From NCBI GenBank assembly GCA_026391775.1, contig JAPLDK010000006.1:2608-66607 (forward strand): a stretch of DNA of 64,000 nucleotides. The letters run 5' to 3'. Of this stretch, positions 2,962 through 60,564 are shown in pieces; position 1 is the stretch's first letter, and every line of letters begins with the position of its first letter. The position numbers and the translations under genes were made by a program. The notes under the pieces were generated by a model. It was given only the letters and a program-made list of their open reading frames with translations. It made no database searches and was not told where the DNA came from. This stretch comes from Bacteroidota bacterium (lineage in GTDB: Bacteria; Bacteroidota; Bacteroidia; Bacteroidales; FEN-979).

Positions 2962-3063
2962 ACCCAAACATCGAACTTTAAAATATTGCCCGGCTAAAAC
3001 CGATTTACAAGTAACTTTGAAACTCGTGTCATAGAGACCAAGTGAACCATAAAACCTAAAGTT

Positions 3064-35743: not shown

Positions 35744-36478
35744 TCAGTCCTCATGCTTTATCGATCCCGCACCTGAAACGCTCTGGTTGATCACAGATGG
35801 GTTTCCTTTATAACGTATGCTGCCGGCCCCGGAGATCTCGGCATTTATTTTCTTGGTTACATGGATTTGAGCTTTTCCGGCCCCACTCATGTCAACGGTA
35901 AAATTCTCACAAACCAGGTCGAAACCATATATGTCGCAGGCTCCCGACAGATCGGCTGTTACATCGGTAACAGTACCGGCCAGCCTCAGTTTGCTGGCAC
36001 CACTGCTGTTCAGATCGAGTTTCTGTGCAGTAACTTCCATACGCACGTCAGAAGCCCCACTGGTATGTAAACTGAAATCGTTCAGGGTGACTTTGTTCTC
36101 AGTCACAATATCCACTGCCCCGCTGACTTCCACTTTTTTCAGGTCTTTAAATGTGATGTACACGTTTAATGAGGTGGGATGGTTGATGGGTTTCCTGGTA
36201 TCGATCACAAGGGTGGATCCACGGACCTCAGCACGAATGATTGTCTGAAGATTTTCATCTGCTTCAATGATCACTTCTTCATTGGGTCCCTGCCTCAGGT
36301 AAATATTAAATGCACCTGAAACGTCAATGCCGTCAAAGGAACTTACAACACGGGTTTCCTTTATAACTTTGCCGTCGCCATGCACACCGGTAATCATATT
36401 GCAACCCGAAGTAATTCCCGAAATGCCCGTGAACAGCATCACGAACATAAACAGGGTAACTAATTTTCTTGTTTTCAT
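35744..36478 (-). CDS. DUF2807 / 'head GIN' putative adhesin-like lipoprotein
   Basis: MKTRKLVTLFMFVMLFTGISGITSGC lipobox. Then GDGKVIKETRVVSSFDGIDVSGAFNIYLRQG and repeated SGA(S/G) strand units. Last gene of the ECF operon. Confidence 0.6.
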   Translation of the reverse strand: MKTRKLVTLFMFVMLFTGISGITSGCNMITGVHGDGKVIKETRVVSSFDGIDVSGAFNIYLRQGPNEEVIIEADENLQTIIRAEVRGSTLVIDTRKPINHPTSLNVYITFKDLKKVEVSGAVDIVTENKVTLNDFSLHTSGASDVRMEVTAQKLDLNSSGASKLRLAGTVTDVTADLSGACDIYGFDLVCENFTVDMSGAGKAQIHVTKKINAEISGAGSIRYKGNPSVINQSVSGAGSIKHED

Positions 36479-36556
36479 ACTCTTGGATTTTAATTGTTCG
36501 GATTTATATTTGATGATCAAATTTATTTTTGGTTACAATTTTCACCATTTTACCAT

Positions 36557-37612
36557 TTATTTCAATGACACACTTCCATAATCGCTCCTCACCACAACAC
36601 TGGCTTTTGGTTTGGCATCCTTGCTTCCAACAACACCCCTGTATTCCGATGAGGTCGGTGTTACCGAGCGGTAGTTCAGATTTGAATTACTTTCAGGGAA
36701 ATGCAGTTCACAGTATTTCAATGTGGCATCCAGGCTGTACACGGCCGATTCGGGTAGCCTTACATCCACATCAGCATATTTGTTTTTAATGTTGATACTC
36801 GTAAAATCGGGCCCCATGTTGCGCACACTGCAACTTCCGTATTGTATGTCAAGGCTCAGGCTCTGCTCTATCCTTTCAATGTCCATATCGGAAAACTTGG
36901 AACGGCTTTCAATGGTTGATGAATTTTTAATATCCACTGCCCCTCCCTCGAAACTGACATTCAGGGCAATGATCTTATTCGCATTAAGGTTTGAAAATTT
37001 CGAATCCAGTCTCAGGCTTCCCGCATAATCTATATCCAGCGTGGAATATTTCAGGTTTATAACAGCTCCTTTTATGCTGCGCACCTTGGCCGAGTTGCAG
37101 AATTTGAGATCGATGAGATTATCGGAATTATTCAGCTTGTTCACATCCAGGCTGCCATAACTGAGATTGATCCTGGTTTTTCCGGATGCTTCGTTAATAT
37201 AAATATCCCCGAATTTATTCGAAAGGTCAAGGCTCATGCTTGACGGGAGGTTGATGGTATAATCCACCTGGAACCTGTTTCTTCCGGAGGTATTCATCTC
37301 ATCGAATACAGTTGTAACTTCTACCAATGAAGTGGTACTGTTGAAGTTCACATTGATCTTTTCAAGCATTTTTGCTGCTGTATTGTCATTTGTGGCATCC
37401 ACGACCACCTTGACTTCTATTCCAACCACGTTTTTATCCCAGTTGGAACAATGGATCCCGCCGAATTTATTGGATATCGTAAGTTGTGCATCGGGGCTCA
37501 CGCTGAATTCCTTTTTTATTACCCTGGTATACTCATTGATGCTGGCTCCTTTCATTCCGATCGCAAGGCCGACCAGGAGTATTATAATGGTTATTTTTAA
37601 AACAGTTTTCAT
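36557..37612 (-). CDS. DUF4097-like beta-strand-repeat protein
   Basis: Signal peptide followed by repetitive beta-helix-like units (KFGDIYINE, SYGSLDV, KYSTLDI, KFSDMDI, QYGSCSV, DYGSVSL). Confidence 0.55.
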   Translation of the reverse strand: MKTVLKITIIILLVGLAIGMKGASINEYTRVIKKEFSVSPDAQLTISNKFGGIHCSNWDKNVVGIEVKVVVDATNDNTAAKMLEKINVNFNSTTSLVEVTTVFDEMNTSGRNRFQVDYTINLPSSMSLDLSNKFGDIYINEASGKTRINLSYGSLDVNKLNNSDNLIDLKFCNSAKVRSIKGAVINLKYSTLDIDYAGSLRLDSKFSNLNANKIIALNVSFEGGAVDIKNSSTIESRSKFSDMDIERIEQSLSLDIQYGSCSVRNMGPDFTSINIKNKYADVDVRLPESAVYSLDATLKYCELHFPESNSNLNYRSVTPTSSEYRGVVGSKDAKPKASVVVRSDYGSVSLK

Positions 37613-37632
37613 ATGCTGTGTTGTTAGTATTG

Positions 37633-38166
37633 TTAATGTTTGCTTAATTTTTTGACAATGTTGTTCATAATTCCTTCTTTCATCTGCTGATTCTGGATGA
37701 CGGCAGCCTGTAGCCGCTCACAGTTTGGATTCTCGGCAAGGGATTTCTGGAGATCACGTGTACTTTCATCAAGAGATTGCATTTCCTTCAGGGCATCCTC
37801 ATTGATGATGTTGGCTTGTACAGGGTCGCTGGCAAGCTTGCGAACTTCTTTCATCTGAGCCATGGCCCTGTCATCATAATATTGAATTGCTTCTGCAAAT
37901 TCAGAGGACATTTGCACGGTAGCCTTATCGGAAGAAAACCTTTCCCGGATAGAACGTGTTGCCAGATCGAAAACTGCAATGCTTCCCGTGATGATCAACA
38001 GTATGATGGCAGCGACCTTAAGCTGGCCGAACCTTGAAGGAGCTGCTATTGCCTGTTGTTTTGTAATACCCAGCTTCTCGCTGAATCTTTCAAAGTGTCC
38101 GTCCAATGGTTCGATCACATCAAACCGATCGCGCTTTTCCTGTATTAATTTATCCAGATTGTTCAT
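37633..38166 (-). CDS. Probable anti-sigma factor (single-pass membrane protein)
   Basis: Lies 2 nt downstream of the ECF sigma gene. One TM helix (LKVAAIILLIITGSIAVF) separates a short cytoplasmic N-terminus from a helical C-terminal domain. The call rests on position and topology only. Confidence 0.45.
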   Translation of the reverse strand: MNNLDKLIQEKRDRFDVIEPLDGHFERFSEKLGITKQQAIAAPSRFGQLKVAAIILLIITGSIAVFDLATRSIRERFSSDKATVQMSSEFAEAIQYYDDRAMAQMKEVRKLASDPVQANIINEDALKEMQSLDESTRDLQKSLAENPNCERLQAAVIQNQQMKEGIMNNIVKKLSKH

Positions 38167-38168
38167 TC

Positions 38169-38771
38169 CTAATTATATAAAAAGACGTTCCGGTATTTGT
38201 TTTCTTTTAAAATGGCAAGAAGCTTTTGCCTGGCGCGTGAGTACCGTGTCCGCGAAAGCTGGTTGCTGATGTTCAGTATTTCGGATATCTCATCATGATC
38301 ATATCCTTCCAGGAGGAACAGGCTGATGATGACCCGGTATTCCTCGGGAAGCTGCTGGATTGCCTTCATCACTTCATGCACCTGGAGCTGGATCTCAGCC
38401 TCATGGCTTTCTTCATGCTCTGCAGACAGGTCTACGCCTTCCTCTTCGAACGATATGGTATCTTTTACCCTTCTCAGGGAGTCAAGCGAGTTATTGACAA
38501 CGATCCTCTTGAGCCAGCTTCCGAAACTGCCCTGTCCCGTATAACCGGCCAGCCTTTGAAACGCATCCAGGAAGGACTCCTGCATGATGTCTTCGGCTTC
38601 GGCGGTATCGTTGACTATTCTGAGACTGGTATTGAACATGGCTTTATAATATAGTTTGTAAATTTTAAACTGGGCGCTTCTTTCCCCGCGACGGCAGGCA
38701 TCGATCAGATCCTTATGAATATTCTCGTAACGGGTTTCCAAACTCCCTGTTTTAGCCAATAGACTCGCCAA
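38169..38771 (-). CDS. ECF-type RNA polymerase sigma-70 family factor
   Basis: Region 2 (FKIYKLYYKAMFNTSLRIVNDTAEAEDIMQESFLDAF) and region 4 HTH (YDHDEISEILNISNQLSRTRYSRARQKL). TTG start, exact start uncertain. Confidence 0.85.
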   Translation of the reverse strand: MASLLAKTGSLETRYENIHKDLIDACRRGERSAQFKIYKLYYKAMFNTSLRIVNDTAEAEDIMQESFLDAFQRLAGYTGQGSFGSWLKRIVVNNSLDSLRRVKDTISFEEEGVDLSAEHEESHEAEIQLQVHEVMKAIQQLPEEYRVIISLFLLEGYDHDEISEILNISNQLSRTRYSRARQKLLAILKENKYRNVFLYN

Positions 38772-38804: not shown

Positions 38805-38812
38805 TATTTTTG
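38805..38812 (+). promoter_or_regulatory. -7 promoter element TAnnTTTG upstream of the EamA transporter gene
   Basis: TATTTTTG, 12 nt before ATG 38825. Confidence 0.4.
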
Positions 38813-38824
38813 CAGCAGGTGAAA

Positions 38825-39706
38825 ATGAATAAAGTCCCGGTGCATTTTTATGCTCTGGCAGCCATGCTGTTCTGGGGTATGTCCTTTGTGTGGACTACCC
38901 GCTTGCTGGTCCATTTTCAGCCGGTCTCCATTATTTTTATCCGCCTGCTGATATCGTCTGTATTCCTTTTTCTGCTGATGATCTTCTCGGGACGGTTCGA
39001 ACGGATCCGGCGCGAAGATATCTGGCTGTTGCTAGGAAGTGCTGTTTTTAACCCTTTCCTGTATTTCCTCGGAGAGAATTTCGGTGTTAAATTTACTTCA
39101 GCTACCATATCCAGCGTCATTATCGCGACAATCCCTGTTTTCTCGCCTGTCATAGCCTGGCTCACTTTCAAAGAAAAAATATCCAGGCTGAATATCTTCG
39201 GCATCTTTGTGTCCTTTGGCGGTGTCTCAATAATGCTAGTCTCAAGGGACCTGTCCCTTTCGGGAGAAGGTAAAGGAGTCCTGGCACTTTTTGGTGCCGT
39301 AATGTCGGCCCTGGTCTTTTCGGTATTTCTGAAGAAACTTACTCAGAAATATTCGCCCGTCACACTAGTGGCCTGGCAAAACATCCTTGGTGCACTTATG
39401 TTCCTCCCTGTATTCCTCATATTTGAGAGCCACGGGATTAAAGCAATCCATATAAATTATGAAGTTGTTTCTACATTTCTTTTCTTATCCGTCTTCGCCT
39501 CTTCCCTCGCATTTGTTTTCTTTGCCAAAACCGTGAAGGAAATCGGGATAAGCAAGGCAAATATATATTCCAATCTTATTCCTGTTTTTACAGCATTTTT
39601 TTCATATTTTCTTATTTCAGAACCATTTACTGTTCAAAAGCTTACAGGTATCATCCTGGTGATTGGCGGGGTTTATCTGTCGGAAAGGAACAAGTCACGT
39701 AAATAA
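38825..39706 (+). CDS. DMT-superfamily (EamA) transporter
   Basis: About 10 TM helices in two EamA-like halves. 293 aa. Confidence 0.8.
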   Translation: MNKVPVHFYALAAMLFWGMSFVWTTRLLVHFQPVSIIFIRLLISSVFLFLLMIFSGRFERIRREDIWLLLGSAVFNPFLYFLGENFGVKFTSATISSVIIATIPVFSPVIAWLTFKEKISRLNIFGIFVSFGGVSIMLVSRDLSLSGEGKGVLALFGAVMSALVFSVFLKKLTQKYSPVTLVAWQNILGALMFLPVFLIFESHGIKAIHINYEVVSTFLFLSVFASSLAFVFFAKTVKEIGISKANIYSNLIPVFTAFFSYFLISEPFTVQKLTGIILVIGGVYLSERNKSRK

Positions 39707-39729
39707 GCATCCCTCCCCTTCTTTTTTTG

Positions 39730-39737
39730 TACCTTTG
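39730..39737 (+). promoter_or_regulatory. -7 promoter element TAnnTTTG upstream of hydG
   Basis: TACCTTTG. It lies inside the N-terminal extension of the longest ORF (39727), which supports ATG 39814 as the start. Confidence 0.4.
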
Positions 39738-39813
39738 CATTCGGGTAAAACCTGCCGTCAAACCACCAGAGATGCTGTTTAAACCTGAGAAACTGAGAAT
39801 AAAGGATCAACGA

Positions 39814-41202
39814 ATGAAATCCTTCATTGATCCTGATGAAATATGGGGGTTCATTAACAATGCCAGGCCAACAAAAGAAAGAGTGAGGGAGATTATTTCA
39901 AAATCACTCGACAAGCAGCGGCTTACGCTTGAGGAGACTGCCCTTCTGGTTCAGGCTAACGACCCTGAATTGGTCGAAGAGATCAAGCAGGGCGCTAAAA
40001 TCCTTAAAGAAAAGGTTTACGGTCAGAGAATAGTTTTATTTGCTCCCCTGTATATCGGGAATCTTTGTATTAATAAATGTGCTTACTGCGGATTCAAATC
40101 CACAAATGAAGCCATCCGGCGTATCACCCTCACCAACGATGAGCTGGTTGCTCAGGTTAAAGCCTTGGAGGATGCCGGCCAGAAGCGCCTTATCCTTGTT
40201 TATGGAGAACATCCGAAATATGATGCAAAGTTTATTGCCGGGACTGTGGGTATCGTATATTCCGTTCGCAGCGGCCCCGGAGAGATCCGAAGGGTCAATA
40301 TCAATGCAGCACCAATGGATATCGACGGTTTCCGAATCATAAAGGACGCAAAGATAGGTACTTACCAGATTTTCCAGGAAACTTACCATGAAGACACATA
40401 TGCTAAAGTTCATCTTGGCGGGATAAAAAGGAATTACGAATGGAGGTTGACCGCTCTCGACCGTGCACAGGAAGCCGGGATTGATGATGTTGGTATTGGT
40501 GCGCTGTTCGGACTCTACGACTGGAGGTTTGACCTGCTCGGCCTGTTAAGGCATACAAATCATTTTGAAGCGGTGTATAATGTCGGTCCACATACAATTT
40601 CTTTCCCAAGGATACAGTATGCCTCCCAGCTGAACATCGACAAATCCCATATTGTCACCGATGCAGAATTCACCCGCTTGGTAGCCATTCTGAGGCTTGC
40701 TGTTCCATATACCGGCCTTATTCTCACCGCCAGGGAACCTTCGGCCGTACGGGATGAGATTTTGCAATTCGGGGTTTCCCAGATCGACGGCGGCACCAAT
40801 ATCGAGATGGGAGGTTATGCAAAAAAGGAACATGCCGAAACCCAGGATATAGACCTTGAACAGTTCCAGATCAACGATAACCGTAGTTTGAATGAGATTA
40901 TGGATGAACTTATACAGCAAGGTTATATTCCTTCGTTTTGCACTTCATGTTACAGGAGAGGGCGCACAGGAGAGCATTTTATGGAATTTTCCGTACCCGG
41001 ATTCATTAAAAGGTTCTGTCAGCCCAATGCCCTGCTCACCCTGGCCGAATACCTTGAAGATTACGCCCCGGAAGCGACAAAAATAAAGGGATATCAGCTT
41101 GTACAGAAAAAATTGGATGAAATGGATGAGGATTCATTCAAAAACAGCCTTATAGAAAAACTTGACCAGGTTAAGGAAGGAAAACGTGACTTGTATTTCT
41201 AA
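39814..41202 (+). CDS. hydG: [FeFe]-hydrogenase H-cluster maturase, radical-SAM tyrosine lyase HydG
   Basis: Radical-SAM CINKCAYCGF (Cx3Cx2C) plus the HydG-specific C-terminal Cx2Cx22C cluster (CTSCYRRGRTGEHFMEFSVPGFIKRFC), which ThiH lacks. FCQPNALLTLAEYLEDY. Confidence 0.88.
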   Translation: MKSFIDPDEIWGFINNARPTKERVREIISKSLDKQRLTLEETALLVQANDPELVEEIKQGAKILKEKVYGQRIVLFAPLYIGNLCINKCAYCGFKSTNEAIRRITLTNDELVAQVKALEDAGQKRLILVYGEHPKYDAKFIAGTVGIVYSVRSGPGEIRRVNINAAPMDIDGFRIIKDAKIGTYQIFQETYHEDTYAKVHLGGIKRNYEWRLTALDRAQEAGIDDVGIGALFGLYDWRFDLLGLLRHTNHFEAVYNVGPHTISFPRIQYASQLNIDKSHIVTDAEFTRLVAILRLAVPYTGLILTAREPSAVRDEILQFGVSQIDGGTNIEMGGYAKKEHAETQDIDLEQFQINDNRSLNEIMDELIQQGYIPSFCTSCYRRGRTGEHFMEFSVPGFIKRFCQPNALLTLAEYLEDYAPEATKIKGYQLVQKKLDEMDEDSFKNSLIEKLDQVKEGKRDLYF

Positions 41203-41211
41203 ACAGAGAAT

Positions 41212-41469
41212 ATGAAAGAAATCCGTATTATTGGCCTGCTGATAACCGACCGTATCAAAGAGGCAGGCCTTACCCAGGGTGTGCTTTCAGAATATGCACA
41301 CCTTATTAAATCAAGGTTGGGATTTCATGAAGTAAGTGAGGATGTATGCAGCAGAACAGGGGTAATCCTTCTTCAACTAAGCGGGAACCAGTCTGAATTT
41401 GACCTTTTTGAGGAAAAACTTAAGAAAATCGACGGTCTCGAAATTCAACATATGATATTCAAAACCTGA
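41212..41469 (+). CDS. TM1266-type small ACT/NikR-C-like protein ('iron-only hydrogenase system regulator' family), paralog 1
   Basis: 85 aa, 9 nt after hydG. MKEIRIIGLLITDR...GVILLQLSGNQSEFDLFEEKLKKIDGLEIQHMIFK fits my recollection of the TM1266 family (beta-alpha-beta-beta-alpha-beta). An HMM confirmation is needed. Confidence 0.55.
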   Translation: MKEIRIIGLLITDRIKEAGLTQGVLSEYAHLIKSRLGFHEVSEDVCSRTGVILLQLSGNQSEFDLFEEKLKKIDGLEIQHMIFKT

Positions 41470-41486
41470 GGAAAAAAATCTAAGCA

Positions 41487-43133
41487 ATGGAGCAGCAGTC
41501 ACGCAAAGAATTGGATAAGGAATTCCAGGAATATTACCTGTCTTCCTCAATTCCAAGCATGAAAGTTGGCCTTTCTGTCACCCTCCTGCTATTCGTTGCC
41601 TATGCCATTGTCAACAACATTCTTTTTGGTTCCCTTCCTGAACAACAGTATTTTTTAAGATTCGGGCTGATTATACCCTCCCTTCTTCTTTCCCTGCTCG
41701 TTATTTTTATTCAACCCTTGCGCAAACATCTTACCCTGATATTCATCATTGTAAACCTTTTCTCATGCTTTGCCATATATTACATTGGGGTCACTACAGA
41801 TATCACAAGCCGGGGCTATAATTACTTTTACGCCTGGGTGATGCTTATCATGATCGGTATGCATACATTTTACAGGATCCGTTTCTGGGATCTTATCATA
41901 TTGAATGCTATGCAGCTGCTGGCCTATGTCCTGGCCTCCCTGTTCAACCGCAGTTATACTGTACCGGTACTTTTTCTCAACCATTTGTTTTTTGTAGTTT
42001 CAGTAACCTCACTTGGATTTTTCATCTCCTATATTTTCCAGAGCCTTAACTGGAAGAACTTTCTCCATCAGAAAGCGCTCACCGAAAATTACCATAAACT
42101 GATCCTTGAGATCAGGGACCGTAAGGAGGCCGAAGAAGAACTCCTGCGATCGGAAAGGCAGTATCATGAGGCTCTGGACAGTTTTCCCGACTGGGTTGTT
42201 GTTGTGGACCGGGACATGAATATTATTATGGTTAATTCCACACTCAAGCAGGTTGCCACGGAAGCAGGCCTTTTAGCTGATCTTACAGAGTTAAACTTCA
42301 AGGACTCATTTCCCTTCATCCGGAAAGAAGAAATTGAAGACGTTAAAGCCGTTTTTGAAACCGGCAGGATCTCCATTGGAGAAATGAATTTTGAATTCAT
42401 GGGGAAGAATGTTTTTCTTGAGACCAGGAAAATCCCTATGATACGTAACAGCAGGGTTGAGCAGGTGATGGTGGTTACCAGGGACCGGTCGAAAGAGAAG
42501 GAAGTTGAAGCTCTGAAGCTAAGGAATGCCGAGACAAAAGAGATTATGCTCAAAGAGATTCATCACAGGGTGAAAAACAATCTCGCTATCGTGATCAGCC
42601 TCCTCGGCATGCAGGGAAAGAAAAACCCTGATCCCGACTTCCAGAGACTAATCAGGGACATTGAGCTCAGGATCAGGTCGATGGCCCTCATCCATGAGCA
42701 TCTTTACCGCAGCGAGAATCTCGATAAAGTACCACTTTCAAATTACATTCACTCCCTGGTATCGATTATTTCAGGTACTTTCAGTGGACATAAGATAAGG
42801 CTGGAGATGCAGCTTGAAGATATCCTGGCAAATATTGAGACGGCCCTGCCCCTGGGCCTGATAACGAATGAACTGCTTACAAATTCCTATAAATACGCAT
42901 TTCCCGGCAATAAGGAAGGCATAGTTACTTTGAAACTCGAAAAATACAATTCGACAGGGTTTAAGCTTGAAATTTCCGATAACGGAGTGGGCCTTCCTGC
43001 TGGTTTTGACCTGCAAAGCCAGGAATCTCTAGGTATGTTTATTATTAAACTCCTGGTTGAACAGCTGGATGGCAGTATTACTATCACGTCAAACGAAGGG
43101 GTATCAGCATCCATTATTGTTCCAACTGTTTAA
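41487..43133 (+). CDS. Membrane sensor histidine kinase, HisKA_2/HWE-like class, with PAS domain
   Basis: About 6 N-terminal TM helices, a coiled coil and PAS (WVVVVDRDMNIIMVN...). H-box EIHHRVKNNLAIVISLL, N-box ELLTNSYKYAF, G-box ISDNGVGLP. Confidence 0.85.
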   Translation: MEQQSRKELDKEFQEYYLSSSIPSMKVGLSVTLLLFVAYAIVNNILFGSLPEQQYFLRFGLIIPSLLLSLLVIFIQPLRKHLTLIFIIVNLFSCFAIYYIGVTTDITSRGYNYFYAWVMLIMIGMHTFYRIRFWDLIILNAMQLLAYVLASLFNRSYTVPVLFLNHLFFVVSVTSLGFFISYIFQSLNWKNFLHQKALTENYHKLILEIRDRKEAEEELLRSERQYHEALDSFPDWVVVVDRDMNIIMVNSTLKQVATEAGLLADLTELNFKDSFPFIRKEEIEDVKAVFETGRISIGEMNFEFMGKNVFLETRKIPMIRNSRVEQVMVVTRDRSKEKEVEALKLRNAETKEIMLKEIHHRVKNNLAIVISLLGMQGKKNPDPDFQRLIRDIELRIRSMALIHEHLYRSENLDKVPLSNYIHSLVSIISGTFSGHKIRLEMQLEDILANIETALPLGLITNELLTNSYKYAFPGNKEGIVTLKLEKYNSTGFKLEISDNGVGLPAGFDLQSQESLGMFIIKLLVEQLDGSITITSNEGVSASIIVPTV

Positions 43134-43151
43134 GCCATTAAAGAAATTGAC

Positions 43152-43412
43152 ATGAAAGAAATCTGGGTTCTTGGCATCAATATCACCGACCGGGCCAGCA
43201 GAGTGTCCCTGGTTCAGAATGTACTGGCAAAATTCGGCTGTTCCATACGTACAAGGCTTGGTTTACACAACCCCGACCCAGGTGCATGTGCAGGTTGTGG
43301 TCTTATTTTACTTGAATTATACGGAGATACTACTGAATTCTATAAACTGGAGAATGAACTCCTGAAAATTGAAGGTATAGAAGTAAAGAAAATGGTCTTT
43401 AAACAAGGGTGA
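43152..43412 (+). CDS. TM1266-type small ACT-like protein, paralog 2 (CxxC variant)
   Basis: 86 aa. MKEIWVLGINITDR...GLILLELYGDTTEFYKLENELLKIEGIEVKKMVFK, roughly 40% identical by eye to paralog 1. Carries ACAGCG where paralog 1 has VCSRTG. Confidence 0.55.
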   Translation: MKEIWVLGINITDRASRVSLVQNVLAKFGCSIRTRLGLHNPDPGACAGCGLILLELYGDTTEFYKLENELLKIEGIEVKKMVFKQG

Positions 43413-44343
43413 TCCTGGTCCCCCCATTGTCGATCCCAAGCATGGTAGTCTTGGTGATAATGGTATCTTTCCCTGAATTTTCCACAAAATGAATTGCAGC
43501 CCTGATCTTGGGGCCCATGCTCCCCTCAGGAAACTGTCCTTCCTCAAGGTATTGTTTAGCCTTGGCAATTGTTAAACGGTGAAGTGGTTCCTCCTGTGGA
43601 GTGTTAAAATTGATACAAACTTTTGGTACATCGGTCAGGATAAAGAATTTATCGGCATTGATCTGTGAAGCCAGGAGTGCCGAAGCAAGGTCTTTGTCTA
43701 TAACGGCATCAATTCCCTCCAGTTTGTTAGGTTCAACATAGTAAACAGGAATCCCTCCTCCGCCCACAGCGATGACAATATTATCCTGTCTGGCAATTTT
43801 CTCAATGGTTTTCTTATTCAGGATAACCAGGGGTTTTGGTGATGCCACAACTTTTCTCCAGCCCCTGCCCCGCGCATCCTCTTTAAAAACAGCATTGGAA
43901 TCGGCAGAGATCACATCAGCTTCTTCCTTTGTATAATATGGCCCTACAGGTTTTGTAGGGTTTTTAAATGCAGGATCATCCTTATTTACCAGTACCTGTG
44001 TTGTTATTGTGATGATGTCTCTTTCCATTTCATACTTCTCGAGCACATTCTTGAGTTGCTGCTCAATAATATAGCCTATGAACCCCTGGGAATAAGCCAC
44101 ACAGATATCCAAGGGCATCTCTGGGATGCCGAACATCTTATATCCTGCCGAATTGGCGAGCATTATATTTCCTACCTGGGGTCCGTTGCCATGGGTTAGT
44201 ACAAGGTTATAATCGCGTTTCATGAGTTTAACAAGACTTTCGGATGTAGCATAGGCATTTGCTTCCTGCTCTCCGATCGTCCCTTTCTGATCGGACCTGA
44301 GAAGGGCATTGCCTCCAAGAGCAACAACAGCAAGCTTTTTCAT
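43399..44343 (-). CDS. arcC: Carbamate kinase
   Basis: MKKLAVVALGGNALL, THGNGPQVG, AVGGGGIPV. 314 aa. Its 3' end overlaps the convergent small ORF by 14 nt. Confidence 0.9.
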   Translation of the reverse strand: MKKLAVVALGGNALLRSDQKGTIGEQEANAYATSESLVKLMKRDYNLVLTHGNGPQVGNIMLANSAGYKMFGIPEMPLDICVAYSQGFIGYIIEQQLKNVLEKYEMERDIITITTQVLVNKDDPAFKNPTKPVGPYYTKEEADVISADSNAVFKEDARGRGWRKVVASPKPLVILNKKTIEKIARQDNIVIAVGGGGIPVYYVEPNKLEGIDAVIDKDLASALLASQINADKFFILTDVPKVCINFNTPQEEPLHRLTIAKAKQYLEEGQFPEGSMGPKIRAAIHFVENSGKDTIITKTTMLGIDNGGTRITLV

Positions 44344-50466: not shown

Positions 50467-50525
50467 TTAATAGCGGATGATATGCAGCAAAGTGTCTTTT
50501 TACATTAAATAACTTATCTGTGAAA

Positions 50526-53228
50526 ATGATAAATAACAGTGAGTTTAAGATTCTCGTGGTTGACGATGAACCCGACCAGCTTAAAATCACTGAACACCTG
50601 TTGAGAAAAGAACACTATGCCGTAAAAACGGCTCAAAACGGGATGGAATGTCTCCATACAATCCGCATGGATAAGCCTGACCTGCTTATGCTGGATGTTG
50701 TTATGCCTGATATGAGCGGTATAGACATTTGCATGATAATTAAAAGTGATCCTGCATTATCTTCTGTTTACATTATTCTTCTTTCAGGTTTAAAGATACA
50801 AACGGATCAGATAGCTGAAGGTTTGGAGACCGGAGCAGACGGGTACATAATTAAACCGTACAAAAGAAGGGAGTTGCTTGCAAGGATTGAAGCGGCTCAT
50901 CGGACTATCAGTGCAGAAAAAAAACTCCGCATTCTCCAAACCAGGACTGATGTCATTTTGTCGGAAATGCCAGACATCATTATGGAAGTGAACAGGAACA
51001 AGGTTTACACATGGGCCAACCATGCTGGTTACCAGTTTTTCGGAGATGATGTGATCGGGAAAGAAGCTGCATTTTATTTTGAAGAGGATCAAAAAACATA
51101 TGAAATCGTCGATCCTCTTTTTTATGGCGCTGATGATATTTTCTATGTGGAAAGCTGGCAAAAGCGGAAGGATGGAGAGAAGCGTCTGCTTGCATGGAGA
51201 TGCCGGGTACTGAAAGACGAAAACGGTAAAGTCGTGGGTGCACTCTCTTCTGCAAGGGATATAACCCAGGCAAAGCAAGCCGAGTTGGCCATGATGGAAA
51301 GCGAAGAACGGTTCCGTTCACTGGTTAAACTGGCTCCTATCCCATTGTGCTTCGTCAACCGGGAAGGCGTCCTGAGTTATTTCAATGATCGCTTTATTCG
51401 AACTTTTGGCTATACTTCGGCCGATATTCCAACCTTAAGAGAATGGTGGAAACTGGCATATCCTGACGAGGGTTACAGGCGATGGGTCGTGGAAACCTGG
51501 GAGAAGGCCGTGGCAAAGGCAGCAAGGGAAGGTATAGATATCGAGCCTGTCGAGTACAATGTGACCTGTAAAAACGGGATAGTGCGCGTTATGGAGATCT
51601 CAGGGATAACCATCGGAGAAAATTTCCTGGCCAGCTTCATCGACCTTACCGGGCACAAGAAGGCCGAATATGCACTGCGTGAAAATGAACATATGCTAAG
51701 GGAGTCTCAGGAAGTTGCCCGTTTGGGAAGTTACATTTGGGATTTGTCCGAAGATTTATGGACAAGCTCAAAAATCCTGGATGATATCTTTGGCATAGAT
51801 GAAAAATACATCCGTTCCCTTAAAGGATGGACGGCATTGATTCATCCCGACTGGCAAGATACAATGCATAATTATGTTGTAGATGAAATTTTAGGGAAAC
51901 TTAAAAGATTTGATAAGGAATATAAAATCATTAACAAAAAAAATGGTAAGGAATACTGGGTACACGGCTTGGGTCGACTTGAATTAGACCAGGATAACAA
52001 ACCCTTAAAATTAATCGGCACCATAACCGATATTTCCAAACGCAAGCAGGTGGAAGTAGAACTGCTTAAAGCTAAGAACAAAGCGGAGGAGAGCGACCGT
52101 CTCAAATCTGTCTTCCTTGCAAATATGTCGCATGAGATCCGCACTCCAATGAACGCCATTGTTGGTTTTGCAGGCATGCTGTCTGATCCGGAACTTTCTG
52201 AAGATGACCGTAACCGGTTTTCGGGGATCATCCAGTCCCGTTCGGATGACCTGATGCATATTATCAACGATCTGCTGGAGATTTCCAGGATCGAATCCGG
52301 GAATGCTACTTTTGTAAAACAAAAAGTCTTCCTGAACTCTGTCCTTGACGAGATGGAGGAAGTGTTCAGGCAGAAGCTTGAAAGAAGCAACAAAACCAAT
52401 ATTCGGCTTGTAGCCGAAAAAGCAATGTTCGACACTGATTCAAACATTGTTACCGATGGGCTTATTCTCAGGCAGGTGCTATCCAATCTCATCGATAATG
52501 CTGTCAAGTATACCGAATCCGGGTCGGTCAGGTTTGGATACAATACACCAGTAAACGGGACAATTACATTTTATGTAGCCGACACCGGTATCGGTATCTC
52601 ACAAGAGAACCATCATGTCATTTTTGAACATTTCCGTCAGGCTGAATCACAGGATCAGCAAAAATACGGAGGCACCGGACTGGGTCTCTCAATATGCAAA
52701 GGGTCTCTTGCCCTTCTCGGTGGCGAGATCTGGGTGGAATCCAGCCCGGGAAATGGCAGCACTTTCTTTTTCAGGCTCCCCTTTGAACCCGATAAAGAGA
52801 AAAACCAGTCCACCGGATCAGTCCTGGATAAGCAAACCGTTAGAGCCACATATAACTGGTCTGGTAAAAAAATCCTGCTGGTCGAGGACGAACAAACGAA
52901 TATGGATTTCCTACAGATCATTCTTGGCCGTACCAATGCTGAATTGATTCCAATATATAATGGCAGTCAGCTGAAAGCCATGTATGATAATCTGGATTCC
53001 TTTGATCTCGTTCTGCTTGATATCAGGCTTCCTGACGCCAACGGTTGGGACCTGGCTAAAGAGATCAAATCGATTAGGCCTGGATTAAAAATTGTCGCCC
53101 AAACTGCATATGCCATGTCGACAGACCGTAAAAAAAGTGAGGAGGCCGGTTGCGACGGGTATATCTCCAAACCGATAAGAAAAAATGAGTTGTACCAGAT
53201 TCTTGATAAATTTATGCTCCGTTCATGA
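50526..53228 (+). CDS. Hybrid sensor histidine kinase: REC - PAS x3 - HisKA - HATPase_c - REC
   Basis: N-terminal receiver (KILVVDDE ... LLMLDVVMPDMSG ... IIKP), PAS repeats, H-box MSHEIRTPMNAI, G-boxes DTGIGI / GGTGLGLSI, and a C-terminal receiver (ILLVEDE ... LLDIRLPDANG ... ISKP). GTG 50520 is an alternative start. Confidence 0.9.
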   Translation: MINNSEFKILVVDDEPDQLKITEHLLRKEHYAVKTAQNGMECLHTIRMDKPDLLMLDVVMPDMSGIDICMIIKSDPALSSVYIILLSGLKIQTDQIAEGLETGADGYIIKPYKRRELLARIEAAHRTISAEKKLRILQTRTDVILSEMPDIIMEVNRNKVYTWANHAGYQFFGDDVIGKEAAFYFEEDQKTYEIVDPLFYGADDIFYVESWQKRKDGEKRLLAWRCRVLKDENGKVVGALSSARDITQAKQAELAMMESEERFRSLVKLAPIPLCFVNREGVLSYFNDRFIRTFGYTSADIPTLREWWKLAYPDEGYRRWVVETWEKAVAKAAREGIDIEPVEYNVTCKNGIVRVMEISGITIGENFLASFIDLTGHKKAEYALRENEHMLRESQEVARLGSYIWDLSEDLWTSSKILDDIFGIDEKYIRSLKGWTALIHPDWQDTMHNYVVDEILGKLKRFDKEYKIINKKNGKEYWVHGLGRLELDQDNKPLKLIGTITDISKRKQVEVELLKAKNKAEESDRLKSVFLANMSHEIRTPMNAIVGFAGMLSDPELSEDDRNRFSGIIQSRSDDLMHIINDLLEISRIESGNATFVKQKVFLNSVLDEMEEVFRQKLERSNKTNIRLVAEKAMFDTDSNIVTDGLILRQVLSNLIDNAVKYTESGSVRFGYNTPVNGTITFYVADTGIGISQENHHVIFEHFRQAESQDQQKYGGTGLGLSICKGSLALLGGEIWVESSPGNGSTFFFRLPFEPDKEKNQSTGSVLDKQTVRATYNWSGKKILLVEDEQTNMDFLQIILGRTNAELIPIYNGSQLKAMYDNLDSFDLVLLDIRLPDANGWDLAKEIKSIRPGLKIVAQTAYAMSTDRKKSEEAGCDGYISKPIRKNELYQILDKFMLRS

Positions 53229-55240
53229 TCAGGCCTTCCCCTTATCAAACCACACAGGGTCTCCGTAGAGTGATTGCCTTATCAGGTGGGTTAACCATAT
53301 TAACTGGCTCAATTGCTCTTGGGGTATGGATATATGGAGCAGGCAACCTCACCAGTATGTCTCCGGAATATATCCCGATGGCCGTATCAACCGGTATTTT
53401 AGCCAGCATATTCGGACTGATTTTCTTATCCGGAGCTTATCAGGTGTCTGGAAAAATATACAGATTTGGGACAATTGCTGTGGTTTGCCTGGTATCATTG
53501 TATGCTTTTTTAAAATTCATTGAATATTTCCTGAAGGCAGACCTAACATTCGATTCCTTTGTTTTTCCTATCCAAAACAGGCTTGGAAGGTATGCTGTTA
53601 ACCGTATATCACCCATTGCCGGTTTGTTATTCTTCCTTTGCGGCCTTGCTACACTGATCAGGATTTCAGGAAAGGGTCATGTTTTTGGGGTAAATCTTGT
53701 AAGCGGAATTGGCGCTATAATCTTGTTTTCAGGTTTTACCGGTTTGATTGGCTACCTTGTTGAGACTCCCTTATTCTACGGAGGCGATATAACACCGGTC
53801 TCCTTACCAACTACATTTGTTTTCCTGGTTTTGGGTTGCGGGCTAGTGGCAATGGGAGGAAATGAGAGCTTTTTATTGCGACAATTCACTGGGGATTTTG
53901 CCAGTGCCAGGATTTTACGGGCAATTCTTCCTCTTATCGTCCTTGCAATGCTGGCTGATGACGTTTTGAGAGCTTTATTATCTCATATCACGTCAATAAA
54001 CATGGTTGCCGCATCAGCTGTTATTGCATTATTGCTGATTCCTGTCACGGTATGGATTGTAATGAAAATTTCACAGCAGATCTTCCAAAAAGCCGAAAAG
54101 GCGGAAGATTCGCGCAGAAAAGCTGAAGCATCACTTAAAGAAAGTGAAAAGCGCAACAGTATCCTCCTTGAGAACCTGGGTGAAGGCATTGGCCTGGTTG
54201 ACCCGGAGGAGCGCTTTGTTTTTGCGAACCCTGCAGCTGAAAGAATTTTTGGTGTTCCTACTGGTACACTGATAGGATATAATCTTAAAGATTTTCTTCT
54301 CCCTGATCAGCTTTCAAAAGTATTACAGGAAACGGAAAAACGGACCCAGGCCGAACCATCTACCTACGAAGTCGATATTATTACACCCGACAATCAAATC
54401 CACAATCTACTCGTCACAGCAACCCCACAGGTGAACAGTGATGGAGCGTTTACAGGAACATTTGGGGTTTTCCGCGACATCACAGCAAGGAAAAAAGTGG
54501 ATTCCGAACTTGAAAAATTCACTATAGCATTGCAGCAATCCAATGCCACAAAGGATAAGTTTTTTTCCATCATTGCCCATGACCTGAAAGGCCCTTTCAA
54601 TTCGATCCTCGGACTTACAAATCTGTTAATTAATGACTATGAGACTTTTGAGGAAAAAGAAATAGAGCATACCTTAAATACGATCAGAAAGTCCTCCGAG
54701 AAAGCCTTTGAGTTACTTGAGAACCTGCTTGTTTGGGCAAATTCACAAACCGGGCAAATCATATTCAATCCGCAGGAGTTCAATCTCACGAATACTATGG
54801 ATGAAAATATCGCACTTCTTGAGGTCCAGGCTGCACGAAAAAAAATTCGTATTGTCGCAAACTGTCCACCGGAATGTATTGCATTCGGTGACAAGCAAAT
54901 GATTCAAACAGTGTTACGTAACCTGATGTCGAATGCCATTAAATTTACACATCCCGGCGGAGAAGTGGGAATAGCTCTTATCCTACATAACAACCACCAT
55001 GAAATTTCGGTAAAAGATACAGGGGTTGGTATTGCTCCAAAAGAGATTCAAAAACTTTTCAAAATTGAAAGCAAGTATAGTACCAGCGGCACATCCAACG
55101 AGAAAGGAACCGGCCTGGGATTGATCCTCTGCAAGGAATTTGTAGAAAAACACGGAGGCAGGATCTGGGTAGACAGTGATGTAGGCCTTGGAAGTAAATT
55201 TAGTTTTACTATCCCAAGGGTAAATGATAATACAAATTAA
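53225..55240 (+). CDS. Membrane sensor histidine kinase (multi-TM N-domain - PAS - HisKA - HATPase_c)
   Basis: About 8 TM helices in the first 300 aa, then PAS. H-box IIAHDLKGPFNSI, then NLMSNAIKFT, DTGVGI, GTGLGLILC. The start overlaps the upstream stop by 4 nt. Confidence 0.9.
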   Translation: MIRPSPYQTTQGLRRVIALSGGLTILTGSIALGVWIYGAGNLTSMSPEYIPMAVSTGILASIFGLIFLSGAYQVSGKIYRFGTIAVVCLVSLYAFLKFIEYFLKADLTFDSFVFPIQNRLGRYAVNRISPIAGLLFFLCGLATLIRISGKGHVFGVNLVSGIGAIILFSGFTGLIGYLVETPLFYGGDITPVSLPTTFVFLVLGCGLVAMGGNESFLLRQFTGDFASARILRAILPLIVLAMLADDVLRALLSHITSINMVAASAVIALLLIPVTVWIVMKISQQIFQKAEKAEDSRRKAEASLKESEKRNSILLENLGEGIGLVDPEERFVFANPAAERIFGVPTGTLIGYNLKDFLLPDQLSKVLQETEKRTQAEPSTYEVDIITPDNQIHNLLVTATPQVNSDGAFTGTFGVFRDITARKKVDSELEKFTIALQQSNATKDKFFSIIAHDLKGPFNSILGLTNLLINDYETFEEKEIEHTLNTIRKSSEKAFELLENLLVWANSQTGQIIFNPQEFNLTNTMDENIALLEVQAARKKIRIVANCPPECIAFGDKQMIQTVLRNLMSNAIKFTHPGGEVGIALILHNNHHEISVKDTGVGIAPKEIQKLFKIESKYSTSGTSNEKGTGLGLILCKEFVEKHGGRIWVDSDVGLGSKFSFTIPRVNDNTN

Positions 55241-55271
55241 CAACCCATTAATGCAACAAACTTGCAGGTAA

Positions 55272-57254
55272 ATGATTCATCCCATGGGAAATACTGCCAA
55301 TGAATTGTTTTTATTGAACACCAGCCTGTCTCAGCTAAGAAACGCCGGGCAGGTAATTCAGCTGTTCATTGAAAGTATTAAAACAATCTTTCCCAATAAA
55401 ATATTAAGCTGGCATCCCGAAAAAGACAACCCACCTCACCCTAATTTCCCTGTCTGTTCGCGAAACAGGACATATGGATTTATACACTTTGACAAATCCA
55501 TGCAAAAGGACCAGGAATCTTACGTTTTGTTACAGATCGCTGCCCAAACACTTGCTGTCCTGCTTGAAAAACTTTCGCTTGAAGAATCTCTCCTGATTCA
55601 GAAAATCCATCTTCAGCAATTGATTGATGAAAAAGCCAGTGAGAATGCTGCATTGAATGAAGAGTACCAGGCGATGAACGAAGAGTTGATGGAAGGGAAC
55701 AGAAACCTGCTACAAATCAACGATCAGCTTGCGTTGGAAATACAGGAGCGCCGGAAAGCGGAAGAATTGCAACAGGCAACCCTTCAACGTCTCAACACCC
55801 ATATCTCAAGTATCTATGCGGGGGTTATTGCCGTTTCCAAAGAGAACCAGGTTGAAATTGTTAACCAGGCCTTCTGCGATCTTTTCAACCTGCCTGAACC
55901 ACCTGCCTTTTACATCGGGTTAGCCTCTGAGGAAATGATAGAAAAGGTACTTTGTGCCTACGCAGATCCTGCTGATACCCTTGCCCGGATGCAGAAGATA
56001 ATTGCTGAAGGGCATCCTGTGAGGGGTGAGGAACTAGCGATGCAGGACGGACGCTATTGCCTTGTTGACTTCATCCCGATAATTGTTAATGATAGAAAAT
56101 GTGGTCACCTCTGGCATCATCAGGACATTACCAACCGTAAAAAAACTGAGGAGGCATTGCGTGAATCCAACGAATACCTGGAGAATCTGTTCAACTATGC
56201 AAATGCGCCAATCATAGTTTGGGATCCTCAATTCCATATTACACGGTTTAACCATGCATTTGAATATCTTACCGGACTAAAAGAAGCCGAAGTAATCGGG
56301 AAATCGCTTGAGATGCTTTTTCCGCCGGAGCTTGCCTTACAATCCATGATTCTTATCCGCAAGACTTTGACCGGCGAACGATGGGAAACAGTCGAGATCA
56401 AAATTCAGCACGAGGACGGTTCTGTAAAGACCGTCTTATGGAATTCGGCTACCTTGTTTGGTTCCGACGGTAAAACCCCTGTTGCCACTATAGCCCAGGG
56501 CCATGACATTACTAAACGCAAAAAAGCGGAAGAAGAAATCAACCTAAAAAACGAGGAACTTCAAAAAATAAATTTAGAAAAAGATAAATTTTTTTCCATT
56601 CTTGCCCATGACCTTCGAAGCCCCTTCAGCGCCTTCCTTGGGTTTACTCAACTGATGGCCGAAGAATTGCCCACCATGACACTCGACCAGATCCAGAAGA
56701 TTGCCATAAACATGAGGAAATCGGCCACTAACCTTTATAATCTGCTGAACAACCTCCTGGAATGGTCCCGTTTACAAAGAGGTGCCACGAGTTTCAAGCC
56801 TGAATCGTTCATGTTGTTGCCAAGCATAACCGAATGCCTCGAATCGGTCAAGGAAAATGCAGTAAAAAAAGGAATAGAAATTATTACAGATATTCCTGAG
56901 GATTTGAACATCATTGCTGATGTCAATATGATGCAGACTATCATCCGTAACCTTGTCTCAAATGCTGTAAAATATACAAACAAAGGAGGAAAGGTAGAAA
57001 TTACAGTCAAAGTCAACACTGTGGGATCGCTGGAACTTTGCATAAAGGATAGCGGTATTGGCATGACAAAAGATATGATCAGCCATCTTTTCAGCCTTGA
57101 TCAGAATATCAACCGCCAAGGGACGGAAGGAGAGCCCAGCACCGGACTTGGATTGATAATCTGCAAGGAATTTGTGGAGAAGCATGGCGGGAAAATCCGG
57201 GTCGTAAGCGAAGAAGGCAAAGGGAGTATTTTTTGTTTTACTATTCCAACTTGA
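55272..57254 (+). CDS. Cytoplasmic PAS sensor histidine kinase
   Basis: No TM helix. Coiled coil and two PAS-like regions. H-box ILAHDLRSPFSAF, then NLVSNAVKYT, DSGIGM, STGLGLIICKEF. Confidence 0.9.
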   Translation: MIHPMGNTANELFLLNTSLSQLRNAGQVIQLFIESIKTIFPNKILSWHPEKDNPPHPNFPVCSRNRTYGFIHFDKSMQKDQESYVLLQIAAQTLAVLLEKLSLEESLLIQKIHLQQLIDEKASENAALNEEYQAMNEELMEGNRNLLQINDQLALEIQERRKAEELQQATLQRLNTHISSIYAGVIAVSKENQVEIVNQAFCDLFNLPEPPAFYIGLASEEMIEKVLCAYADPADTLARMQKIIAEGHPVRGEELAMQDGRYCLVDFIPIIVNDRKCGHLWHHQDITNRKKTEEALRESNEYLENLFNYANAPIIVWDPQFHITRFNHAFEYLTGLKEAEVIGKSLEMLFPPELALQSMILIRKTLTGERWETVEIKIQHEDGSVKTVLWNSATLFGSDGKTPVATIAQGHDITKRKKAEEEINLKNEELQKINLEKDKFFSILAHDLRSPFSAFLGFTQLMAEELPTMTLDQIQKIAINMRKSATNLYNLLNNLLEWSRLQRGATSFKPESFMLLPSITECLESVKENAVKKGIEIITDIPEDLNIIADVNMMQTIIRNLVSNAVKYTNKGGKVEITVKVNTVGSLELCIKDSGIGMTKDMISHLFSLDQNINRQGTEGEPSTGLGLIICKEFVEKHGGKIRVVSEEGKGSIFCFTIPT

Positions 57255-57312
57255 CTGAATTAACCTTTTTTCCTTATTTAATTATTTGCACTTTATTTTC
57301 AAGGAGGTTTGC

Positions 57313-59565: not shown

Positions 59566-59586
59566 AGTTGAAATAATTTTCAAAAA

Positions 59587-60564
59587 ATGAAGAACGAAAG
59601 TAAATTACGTCATTGCCTGTTTTCAGGTGTTTTTATGATCCTGCTTTTAAGCGCATTCACTCTTCCCGGCTGTCACCGCCAACCGCCTGTTTTAAGAGTT
59701 GCTACAAACCTGTGGCCGGGTTATGAAATGCTGTATCTTGCCAGGAACCTGGGATATTATAATGAACTGCCTGTTCGACTTGTAGAAGTCCCTTCTACAA
59801 GCCAGGTAACAAGAAACTTAAGGAATGGCACACTGGAAGTGGGCTGTCTTACTCTCGATGAGGCGTTAACCCTTCTTCAGGACAAGATTGACCTGCGGGT
59901 CATACTGGTAATGGATGAATCTTGTGGCGGAGATGTGCTGATGGCAAAACCGGATATAGACGGTCTGAAGGGATTGCGTGGCAAACGCATAGGTTTTGAA
60001 AATTCAACTGTAAGCGCGGTCCTTCTTGATGCGGCATTGGTAGAAGCAGGGTTACAGATCAATGAAATCAAGCAGGTTCCTATGTCTGTAGACGAACAAT
60101 TCCAGGGTTATATGACCGATAAGGCTGATGCAGTGGCAACTTATGAACCTGTGCGAAGTCAGCTTCTCCGGAAAGGGGCAAAAATACTTTTCAGCAGCGC
60201 CCAGATACCGGGAAGGATCATTGATATACTTGTCGTCCGTGCTGAAGTTATAGACAAATATTCAGAAGAACTGACAGCTCTGCTTGATGGCTACTTCAGG
60301 GCGCTGGAATACTTCGAAAAACATCCTTTGGATGCTGCCAAACAAATGGAGAAGAGGCTTGGCAGGGATCCGTTGACACAGTTCAAAGGACTTCATATTC
60401 CAAGCCTGAATGAAAATTATCATTACCTGAGAGGAGATTCGGCCCGTCTTTTAAAGTCTTCCCAAAATCTATTGGAAGTAATGTTGAAACGTAAGTTGCT
60501 GCGGCATAGTTTCTCATTCGGTAACCTGGCAGAACCAAAATTTCTTCCAAACCAAAAACCATGA
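59587..60564 (+). CDS. Periplasmic substrate-binding lipoprotein, NMT1/SsuA (NitT/TauT)-like
   Basis: Lipobox LSAFTLPGC. LRVATNLWPGYEMLYLA ... GKRIGFENSTVS is the type-2 PBP pattern of the nitrate/sulfonate/taurine family. No ABC permease or ATPase gene is nearby. Confidence 0.65.
   Translation: MKNESKLRHCLFSGVFMILLLSAFTLPGCHRQPPVLRVATNLWPGYEMLYLARNLGYYNELPVRLVEVPSTSQVTRNLRNGTLEVGCLTLDEALTLLQDKIDLRVILVMDESCGGDVLMAKPDIDGLKGLRGKRIGFENSTVSAVLLDAALVEAGLQINEIKQVPMSVDEQFQGYMTDKADAVATYEPVRSQLLRKGAKILFSSAQIPGRIIDILVVRAEVIDKYSEELTALLDGYFRALEYFEKHPLDAAKQMEKRLGRDPLTQFKGLHIPSLNENYHYLRGDSARLLKSSQNLLEVMLKRKLLRHSFSFGNLAEPKFLPNQKP

Follow-up and report, generated by a model that had tools for sequence, protein, structure and literature searches.

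The 64,000-nt stretch of DNA analyzed here (the window) comes from a Bacteroidota bacterium of the order Bacteroidales (assembly GCA_026391775.1, contig JAPLDK010000006.1). Between positions 39727 and 43412 it carries four open reading frames (ORFs) on the same, forward strand: hydG, which encodes the radical S-adenosylmethionine (radical-SAM) maturase of the [FeFe]-hydrogenase H-cluster; a gene for a protein of 85 amino acids (aa), called small1 here; a gene for a membrane sensor histidine kinase; and a gene for small2, an 86-aa paralog of small1. The intergenic gaps measure only 9, 17 and 18 nt, and a terminator scan found no intrinsic terminator-like site within them. A preliminary description of this DNA had reported the same four genes with the same spacing, which the coordinates confirm, and had suggested that the two small proteins and the kinase form a single signaling module for hydrogenase maturation. 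We favor a different arrangement, in which hydG and the pair of small genes are the core and the kinase is an addition made in one clade.

The first gene is HydG by every measure that was used to name it. The protein scores 502.2 bits on TIGR03955, against a curated equivalog cut-off of 312.15, contains Radical_SAM and BATS domains, and shows in its translation the two motifs from which it had initially been recognized, CINKCAYC (the Cx3Cx2C motif of radical-SAM enzymes) and CTSC-x22-C (the C-terminal Cx2Cx22C auxiliary-cluster motif). The maximal ORF spans 39727-41202 on the forward strand, and since orthologs are called at 476 aa, the true start is probably the ATG at 39772.

The small genes (small1, 41212-41469; small2, 43152-43412; both on the forward strand) encode proteins that are 42% identical, in agreement with their initial reading as paralogs, and the motifs VCSRTG in small1 and ACAGCG in small2 are both present. 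They had also been assigned to the TM1266 family with an ACT/NikR-C-like fold; of this assignment the fold stands, but membership in the family itself has to be widened to membership in its superfamily. On TIGR03959, small1 and small2 score 28.8 and 26.6 bits against a cut-off of 60.8, and on PF21699 they score 21.6 and 22.2 bits against a cut-off of 27, which rules out TM1266 proper. The best model for both is NF052672 (“CPF_0552 family”, cut-off 85), which small2 passes with 89.3 bits and small1 falls just under with 77.8. A profile of 86 relatives matches the sequence of 2NZC, from the TM1266 family, over its full length (E=2.2e-5). The AlphaFold2 (AF2) model of small2, with a predicted local distance difference test (pLDDT) value of 87 and a predicted template modeling score (pTM) of 0.78, has the topology beta-alpha-beta-beta-alpha-beta, and Foldseek returned 2NZC as its top match (template modeling (TM) score 0.80-0.87, E=1.5e-6). 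The second-best match was the Ni-binding domain of NikR (1Q5Y, 2BJ3, 2Y3Y, 3BKU; TM score 0.67-0.78), followed by ACT domains, and PII-like proteins were also among the structural neighbors. The likeness to ACT domains is structural only, as the Pfam ACT models gave no match to the small proteins at E<=0.01. The genomic context is that expected of TM1266: small1 begins 9 nt downstream of hydG, and in 72 of 80 related loci hydG precedes the small genes. From these sequence comparisons the small proteins are best regarded as a sister subfamily of TM1266 within the same superfamily. Because they have no DNA-binding domain, a role as transcription factors is unlikely. A literature search on TM1266, CPF_0552 and TIGR03959 found no paper addressing the family in the library searched, in line with the earlier remark that no mechanism has been described for it.

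The kinase gene (41487-43133, forward strand) encodes a protein of 548 aa, and both Pfam and hydropathy uphold the domains first read from it (about six transmembrane segments, a PAS domain, HisKA_2 and its H-box). A multi-transmembrane N-terminal domain with ~6 hydrophobic segments covers residues ~22-187; Pfam matched no family in the N-terminal 229 residues. It is followed by a PAS domain (PAS_4, residues 226-340, 42162-42506), a HisKA_2 dimerization and histidine phosphotransfer (DHp) domain (PF07568, residues 357-428, 42555-42770; 87.8 bits against a gathering score of 22.3) and a HATPase_c domain (residues 455-545, 42849-43121; 37.9 bits). The H-box EIHHRVKNNL (residues 357-366, 42555-42584) includes H360, the presumed phospho-acceptor histidine, as in HisKA_2 kinases generally, and the motifs NELLTNSYKYAF and DNGVG, the N and G1 boxes of a GHKL ATPase domain, are conserved. 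None of the 42 kinase orthologs departs from the H-, N- and G1-boxes, and of all the domains the DHp varies least. This constancy of the catalytic motifs indicates purifying selection on the kinase, which is predicted to be catalytically competent.

No receiver accompanies this kinase. The operon has neither a receiver gene nor a DNA-binding gene, as had been stated from the outset and as the annotated neighborhoods and a scan of the window bear out: there is no Response_reg gene in the 16-kb annotated neighborhoods, and the only receivers in the window are domains of hybrid kinases encoded over 7 kb away. A search of the window for hydA, hydE, NuoF and Rex genes, for a HydF-type motif and for a stand-alone receiver found none of them. 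The kinase thus departs from the canonical two-component arrangement, in which a receiver gene lies in or beside the operon.

How this locus compares with others was judged from a pattern scan of 185,579 species-representative genomes, which yielded 543 stretches encoding a relative; the window proteins were mapped onto the best 80 of these 543 loci, almost all of them labeled Bacteroidota. The arrangement that recurs is that of hydG and the two small genes. In 71 of the 80 loci hydG is followed by both small genes, and of the remaining nine most are truncated at a contig end; likewise, most of the loci that do not show hydG upstream of the small genes end at contig edges. The median gap from hydG to small1 is 16 nt, and where the kinase is missing, small2 follows small1 directly, at a median distance of 17 nt. 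The hydG-small1-small2 arrangement without the kinase is both wider and older than the kinase-bearing one.

The two small proteins also occur as a single polypeptide. A profile search of 1.84 billion cluster representatives (50% identity) found 655 family members at E<=0.001, and among the best 150 of these were 10 proteins of 161-182 aa with two matched stretches, the small1-like half always N-terminal and the small2-like half always C-terminal. Used as a query, such a fusion found at least 1,188 relatives; among the 120 listed, nearly all are 174 aa long and those with a name are Bacteroidales. In both of the contigs checked (2 of 2), the fusion gene lies directly 3' of hydG. The AF2 model of a natural fusion (pTM 0.76) has two beta-alpha-beta-beta-alpha-beta halves, and as a whole chain it comes closest, at low TM score, to regulatory subunits with two ACT domains, for example IlvH. 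Gene fusion in a fixed order is a classical indirect sign of protein association, though not proof of it. Since small1 and small2 are fused in more than 1,000 other sequences, the two proteins most likely assemble with each other, as a heterodimer or a larger hetero-oligomer.

In deeper-branching lineages hydG and the pair stand at the end of a large hydrogenase cluster. Its order is a NuoF-like gene, HydA, an H-domain::HisKA-HATPase fusion, a single-domain response regulator, a receiver-kinase hybrid, Rex, FAD synthetase, HydG and the pair. The H-domain (Fer4, Fe_hyd_lg_C, FeS) joined to HisKA and HATPase_c is found at 2127-4145 in locus L087, 2149-4200 in L088 and 3021-4982 in L089, and in all three this gene is followed by the single-domain response regulator, the receiver-kinase hybrid and Rex, upstream of hydG and the pair. 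Locus L084 (4374-8258) has NuoF-like, HydA and single-domain response regulator genes with a lone small2-like gene, and neither hydG nor small1 nearby. On the opposite strand, 3' of the fused or paired small genes, a radical-SAM gene of ~366-370 aa occurs in L089 (10561-11661, minus strand), L090 (9884-10996, minus strand) and L072 (13480-14565, minus strand); it is immediately adjacent only in L089 and may be a candidate hydE. Phospho-signaling genes near [FeFe]-hydrogenase genes are a known theme, in connection with putative sensory hydrogenases (PMC8163306).

The distribution of the kinase is much narrower. Other genomes also have a kinase gene flanked by two small genes: the kinase is present in 42 of the 80 species-level loci, with kinase identity down to 47%, and it always lies between small1 and small2. 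More than 120 clusters of kinase orthologs were found, and the two most divergent orthologs checked (47% identity) occupy the same slot between the paralogs. The median gaps are 10 nt between small1 and the kinase and 6 nt between the kinase and small2, with a 4-nt overlap of kinase and small2 in three loci. All kinase-bearing loci belong to one syntenic clade of Bacteroidales metagenome-assembled genomes (MAGs), labeled Prolixibacteraceae or Draconibacterium, which is monophyletic on a neighbor-joining tree of HydG; one of these loci, L028, is from a MAG assigned to Draconibacterium orientale. Throughout this clade the region is collinear, from an extracytoplasmic function (ECF) sigma gene and an EamA gene, through hydG, to a carbamate kinase gene, a second EamA gene and a methylthiotransferase gene. 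Within it, one subclade of seven genomes has no kinase, and neither do five loci scattered among kinase-bearing ones (L069, L025, L048, L052 and L056); a 13th kinase-less locus, L049, does not have hydG on its contig and is not part of the HydG tree. In L052 the 495-nt gap between small1 and small2 (2585-3079) encodes kinase residues 7-119 and 497-543, a remnant with an internal deletion of ~1.2 kb whose DNA is 70-82% identical to the kinase genes of its neighbors. The most parsimonious history is one gain of the kinase followed by at least five losses.

The conservation of individual residues was taken from 76 small1 and 83 small2 orthologs. In small1, D13-R14, K16-E17, H39 and C46-S47-R48 are conserved at or near 100%, and H30 is found in ~85% of sequences within the syntenic clade. 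In small2, G29-C30, T34, H39 and E55 are conserved at 100%, and C46 is present in 64-88% of orthologs (absent in 12-36%). The preliminary description had contrasted the CxxC of small2 with the CxxT of small1 as a possible redox- or metal-sensing pair. This contrast does not survive the comparison: C49 of small2 is a minority state, and some orthologs have no cysteine in the motif at all (GASAGSG, GTAAGSG). A CxxC redox or metal pair is therefore ruled out. The consensus residues of both proteins are identical with and without the kinase. The fusions keep the histidine and CSR of small1 type and the C30 of small2 type, while their small2 H39 is replaced by Asn and C46 is gone. Since the fusions do without small2 H39 and C46, the set common to all forms is H39 and C46 of small1 and C30 of small2. 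These residues, with S47 and R48 of small1 beside C46, may be the candidate ligands of one composite site at the interface, and we hypothesize an intersubunit Cys/His site.

Whether such a site binds metal can be approached by comparison with NikR, using a sequence of the Escherichia coli protein identical to 1Q5V. In the AF2 model, C30/H30 comes where helix 1 ends, H39 where strand 2 ends and C46 in the loop between strands 2 and 3, and in an ungapped comparison these topological places are those of H76, H87/H89 and C95 of E. coli NikR. Of the four NikR ligands (H76', H87, H89 and C95, E. coli numbering), only H89 has a counterpart, namely H39; the equivalent of H87 is an invariant Gly in the small proteins, and since the registers on either side of the loop differ by 5 residues, C46 lies near C95 without being strictly equivalent to it. 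It is possible, although on balance doubtful, that the small proteins are NikR-type metal modules with an intersubunit Cys/His site for sensing or delivering Fe(II) or another metal, for example to resupply the dangler Fe/Cys of HydG, and are not amino acid-binding ACT regulators. The NikR Ni-binding domain as second-best structural match and the NikR-like topological places speak for this, as do the C30/H39/C46 signature, which is present in 63 of 119 single-domain family representatives, and the absence of all three residues from TM1266 itself. On the other side stand an hhalign comparison of the small-protein profile with NikR that gave no significant match, the register shift and the Gly in place of H87, the small2 orthologs that lack C46 and the fusions that have lost both H39 and C46 of small2. 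This interpretation concerns the small proteins only and is compatible with every model of the kinase.

Based on the distribution of these genes, we propose that hydG and the pair are the core of the system, that the pair acts on or with HydG, and that the kinase is a clade-specific add-on signaling to an unlinked receiver; we would put the chance of this being correct at roughly one in two. The pair would be a heterodimeric ligand- or metal-binding accessory or regulatory subunit working on or with HydG, and its closest analogy would be the ACT-type small subunit encoded just 3' of acetohydroxyacid synthase. In the kinase clade, the hydG-pair module would have moved away from the hydrogenase cluster with its own sensory kinase, response regulators and Rex, and after this relocation the gene for a membrane PAS/HisKA_2 kinase would have been inserted, once, between the paralogs. 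To judge from gene spacing and sequence conservation, the kinase is probably co-transcribed with hydG, translationally coupled in places and catalytically active. It would most likely signal to a receiver encoded elsewhere, and could tie a signal sensed at the envelope or by the PAS domain to the conditions under which hydG is expressed. On this proposal the kinase would be a dispensable, lineage-specific addition that is not needed for the function of the small proteins.

Several observations weigh against this proposal. One MAG contig (L074, 1200-5094) has an intact kinase gene (559 aa) and small2 directly after EamA, with hydG and small1 cleanly absent, which a link between kinase and small2 would account for better than a mere add-on would. 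A direct partnership may likewise lie behind the coupling to small2 and the constant placing of the kinase exactly between the paralogs, or the slot may have been conserved by vertical inheritance in a syntenic region alone. An internal promoter may lie within the operon, as the promoter scan does not cover Bacteroidota promoters. The neighbor-joining tree behind the count of losses is approximate. For a metal-binding pair in particular, the sequence comparison above is unfavorable, in that the NikR ligands are not conserved as such in the small proteins and the profiles of the two families do not match significantly.

The first alternative to be weighed is that the HisKA_2 kinase works directly with small1 and small2, which would sense a ligand, a metal or the state of HydG and set whether the enzyme acts as kinase or as phosphatase, much as PII (GlnB) controls NtrB; in a variant, the small proteins are non-canonical substrates of the kinase, and the three genes make up one signaling module for hydrogenase maturation. 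PII (GlnB) would serve here as a conceptual analogue only: it is small, has a ferredoxin fold, senses ligands and modulates the histidine kinase NtrB, but it is not homologous to the small proteins. Such a partnership would explain why the kinase lies exactly between the paralogs in 42 of 42 carrier loci and in two further ortholog contexts, why the kinase and small2 are so close (6 nt, overlapping in some loci), why the operon has no receiver gene and why L074 still has the kinase and small2 although its hydG and small1 are gone. The fold of the small proteins is a ferredoxin-like, ligand-binding one with PII-like structural neighbors, and within the kinase conservation is highest in the DHp, where partners are selected. 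Yet the pair occurs without the kinase in 37 of the 80 loci, counted where both small genes, or small2 and the sequence before it, are visible, it exists as a fusion in more than 1,000 sequences, and both small genes were kept when the kinase was lost at least five times, with their consensus unchanged. When shared phylogenetic signal is removed, the residual distance correlation is 0.006 between small2 and the kinase and 0.355 between small1 and the kinase, under the values of 0.54 for HydG and the kinase and 0.58 for carbamate kinase and the kinase. Locus pairs that differ in the presence of the kinase show no consistent extra divergence of the small genes, which are not clearly faster after its loss. 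In addition, HisKA_2 kinases are often orphans, as reported for PhyK. No test favors a specific partnership between the kinase and the small proteins, although mirror-tree and rate-shift tests on 36 loci and 85-residue proteins are weak ones. The three-protein signaling module of the preliminary description thus found no support in distance covariation or in rates after kinase loss, and the pair is older than the kinase and survives every loss of it. We regard a direct partnership as rather unlikely. A more specific form of it is improbable: a small1/small2 heterodimer acting as a Cys/His sensor of iron or of an H-cluster precursor and docking on the HisKA_2 kinase, PII/NtrB-like, as a three-protein module. 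If it were true, the status of HydG or of maturation would be fed into a phosphorelay, and a function would have been assigned for the first time in the TM1266 superfamily.

The opposite alternative is that the kinase has nothing to do with hydG and the pair, having landed in a permissive intergenic site and having been kept in some lineages for signaling of its own, with its position conserved only through the synteny of the region. Collinearity of the entire region leaves the position of the kinase with little information of its own; the kinase has been lost repeatedly, it evolves much faster than its neighbors (47-53% identity where HydG keeps ~80%), no covariation with the small proteins was found, and many other sensor kinases are encoded on the same contig. 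However, the tight, conserved spacing and the start/stop overlaps imply that transcription and translation have long been shared with hydG and small2, and the invariance of the catalytic motifs in 42 orthologs implies purifying selection. Splitting a pair that is fused in related genomes would also be expected to be costly unless tolerated or useful. An unrelated kinase is thus unlikely, and an add-on kinase expressed with a hydG-small1-small2 core remains the account that we prefer.

The surroundings of the operon have features of their own. An EamA/DMT-family transporter gene (38810-39706, forward strand; PF00892 EamA, E=2.4e-47) ends ~65 nt before the probable ATG of hydG, on the same strand, and its synteny with hydG is kept throughout the kinase-bearing clade. 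This gene may be the first of the operon, and one can speculate that its product moves HydG substrates or the HydG by-product p-cresol. At the other end, a convergent carbamate kinase gene of the AA_kinase family (43399-44343, minus strand) runs 14 nt into the end of small2; across the kinase-bearing clade its product is 82-96% identical. Divergent from EamA-hydG lie genes for an ECF sigma factor, an anti-sigma-like protein, DUF4097 and DUF2807 (35744-38771, minus strand), a block that is syntenic throughout the clade with or without the kinase. In Alphaproteobacteria, HWE/HisKA_2 kinases are reported to govern an ECF sigma factor; no PhyR-like gene was seen near the ECF sigma locus, nor a PhyR-type partner for the window kinase. 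Further downstream, 50520-62519 (forward strand) holds a tandem of five large PAS/HisKA/HATPase sensor kinases of 902, 671, 660, 759 and 652 aa, the first and last of which are hybrids with receiver domains, and an NMT1-like solute-binding protein gene (59587-60564) lies between the fourth and the fifth. An Rfam scan of the whole window gave no match, and a scan for sigma-70 promoters and terminators gave counts not above those in shuffled sequence, a scan that is not informative for Bacteroidota promoters.

Of the genes regularly linked to hydG, those for TM1266-like proteins are, to our knowledge, alone in having no known role. That a TM1266-like gene accompanies hydG was already captured by curated models, and kinases near [FeFe]-hydrogenase genes were known as well. 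What is new is the obligate pair of paralogs and its fusion, the Cys/His set that is absent from TM1266, and the clade-specific HisKA_2 insertion with its repeated loss. The small proteins of Bacteroidales, as an obligate and often fused pair, are best studied together as a heterodimer, and the short list of invariant Cys, His and Arg residues to start from differs from the CxxC that stood out at first sight. The genomes with and without the kinase, one of them caught in the middle of its loss, form a natural series that could be used for phylogenetic profiling of the kinase's receiver. If the pair regulates or supplies HydG, it would bear on the control of a costly and toxic CO/CN ligand chemistry and on the heterologous production of hydrogenases. 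The pair may thus offer a tractable route into an uncharacterized family associated with maturation.

Among known systems, the TM1266 family (TIGR03959/PF21699; 2NZC; “iron-only hydrogenase system putative regulator”) is the nearest to the small proteins, with the same fold, homology at the profile level and a gene directly 3' of hydG. Only the window proteins are a paralog pair or fusion, with a kinase gene between them in this clade; TM1266 lacks their C30/H30, H39 and C46, and their loop is ~4 residues longer. The “CPF_0552 family” of NF052672, the best-scoring model, is known by its family name alone and has no described function. The C-terminal domain of NikR is alike in fold, and the conserved His and Cys of the window proteins are found at similar topological places (where strand 2 ends and in the loop from there to strand 3), but the small proteins have no ribbon-helix-helix DNA-binding domain, do not match NikR at the sequence level and do not keep its four Ni ligands as a set. 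IlvH and IlvN, the ACT-type small subunits of acetohydroxyacid synthase, are likewise small ACT-fold proteins whose gene lies 3' of the catalytic gene; the fused form resembles such two-ACT chains with a whole-chain TM score of only 0.3-0.4, the window proteins have no Pfam ACT match, and their binding to HydG would be putative.

For the kinase, the closest relatives in kind are the HWE/HisKA_2 kinases (PhyK, LOV kinases), which share with it the HisKA_2 DHp with an HRVKNN H-box, the N and G1 boxes and the status of an orphan without an adjacent receiver. The window kinase differs from them in its six-transmembrane N-terminus, which has no Pfam family, in its place inside a Bacteroidota hydG operon and in having no PhyR-type partner that was seen. 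In the kinase-linked putative sensory [FeFe]-hydrogenases of groups C and D (HydS), phospho-signaling genes likewise accompany [FeFe]-hydrogenase genes (PMC8163306), and the related Bacteroidales with an H-domain::HisKA-HATPase fusion, response regulators and Rex upstream of the same hydG-pair provide a link to them. Unlike these, the window kinase has no hydrogenase domain, is of the HisKA_2 and not the HisKA type, and is encoded in a maturase operon far from hydrogenase genes.

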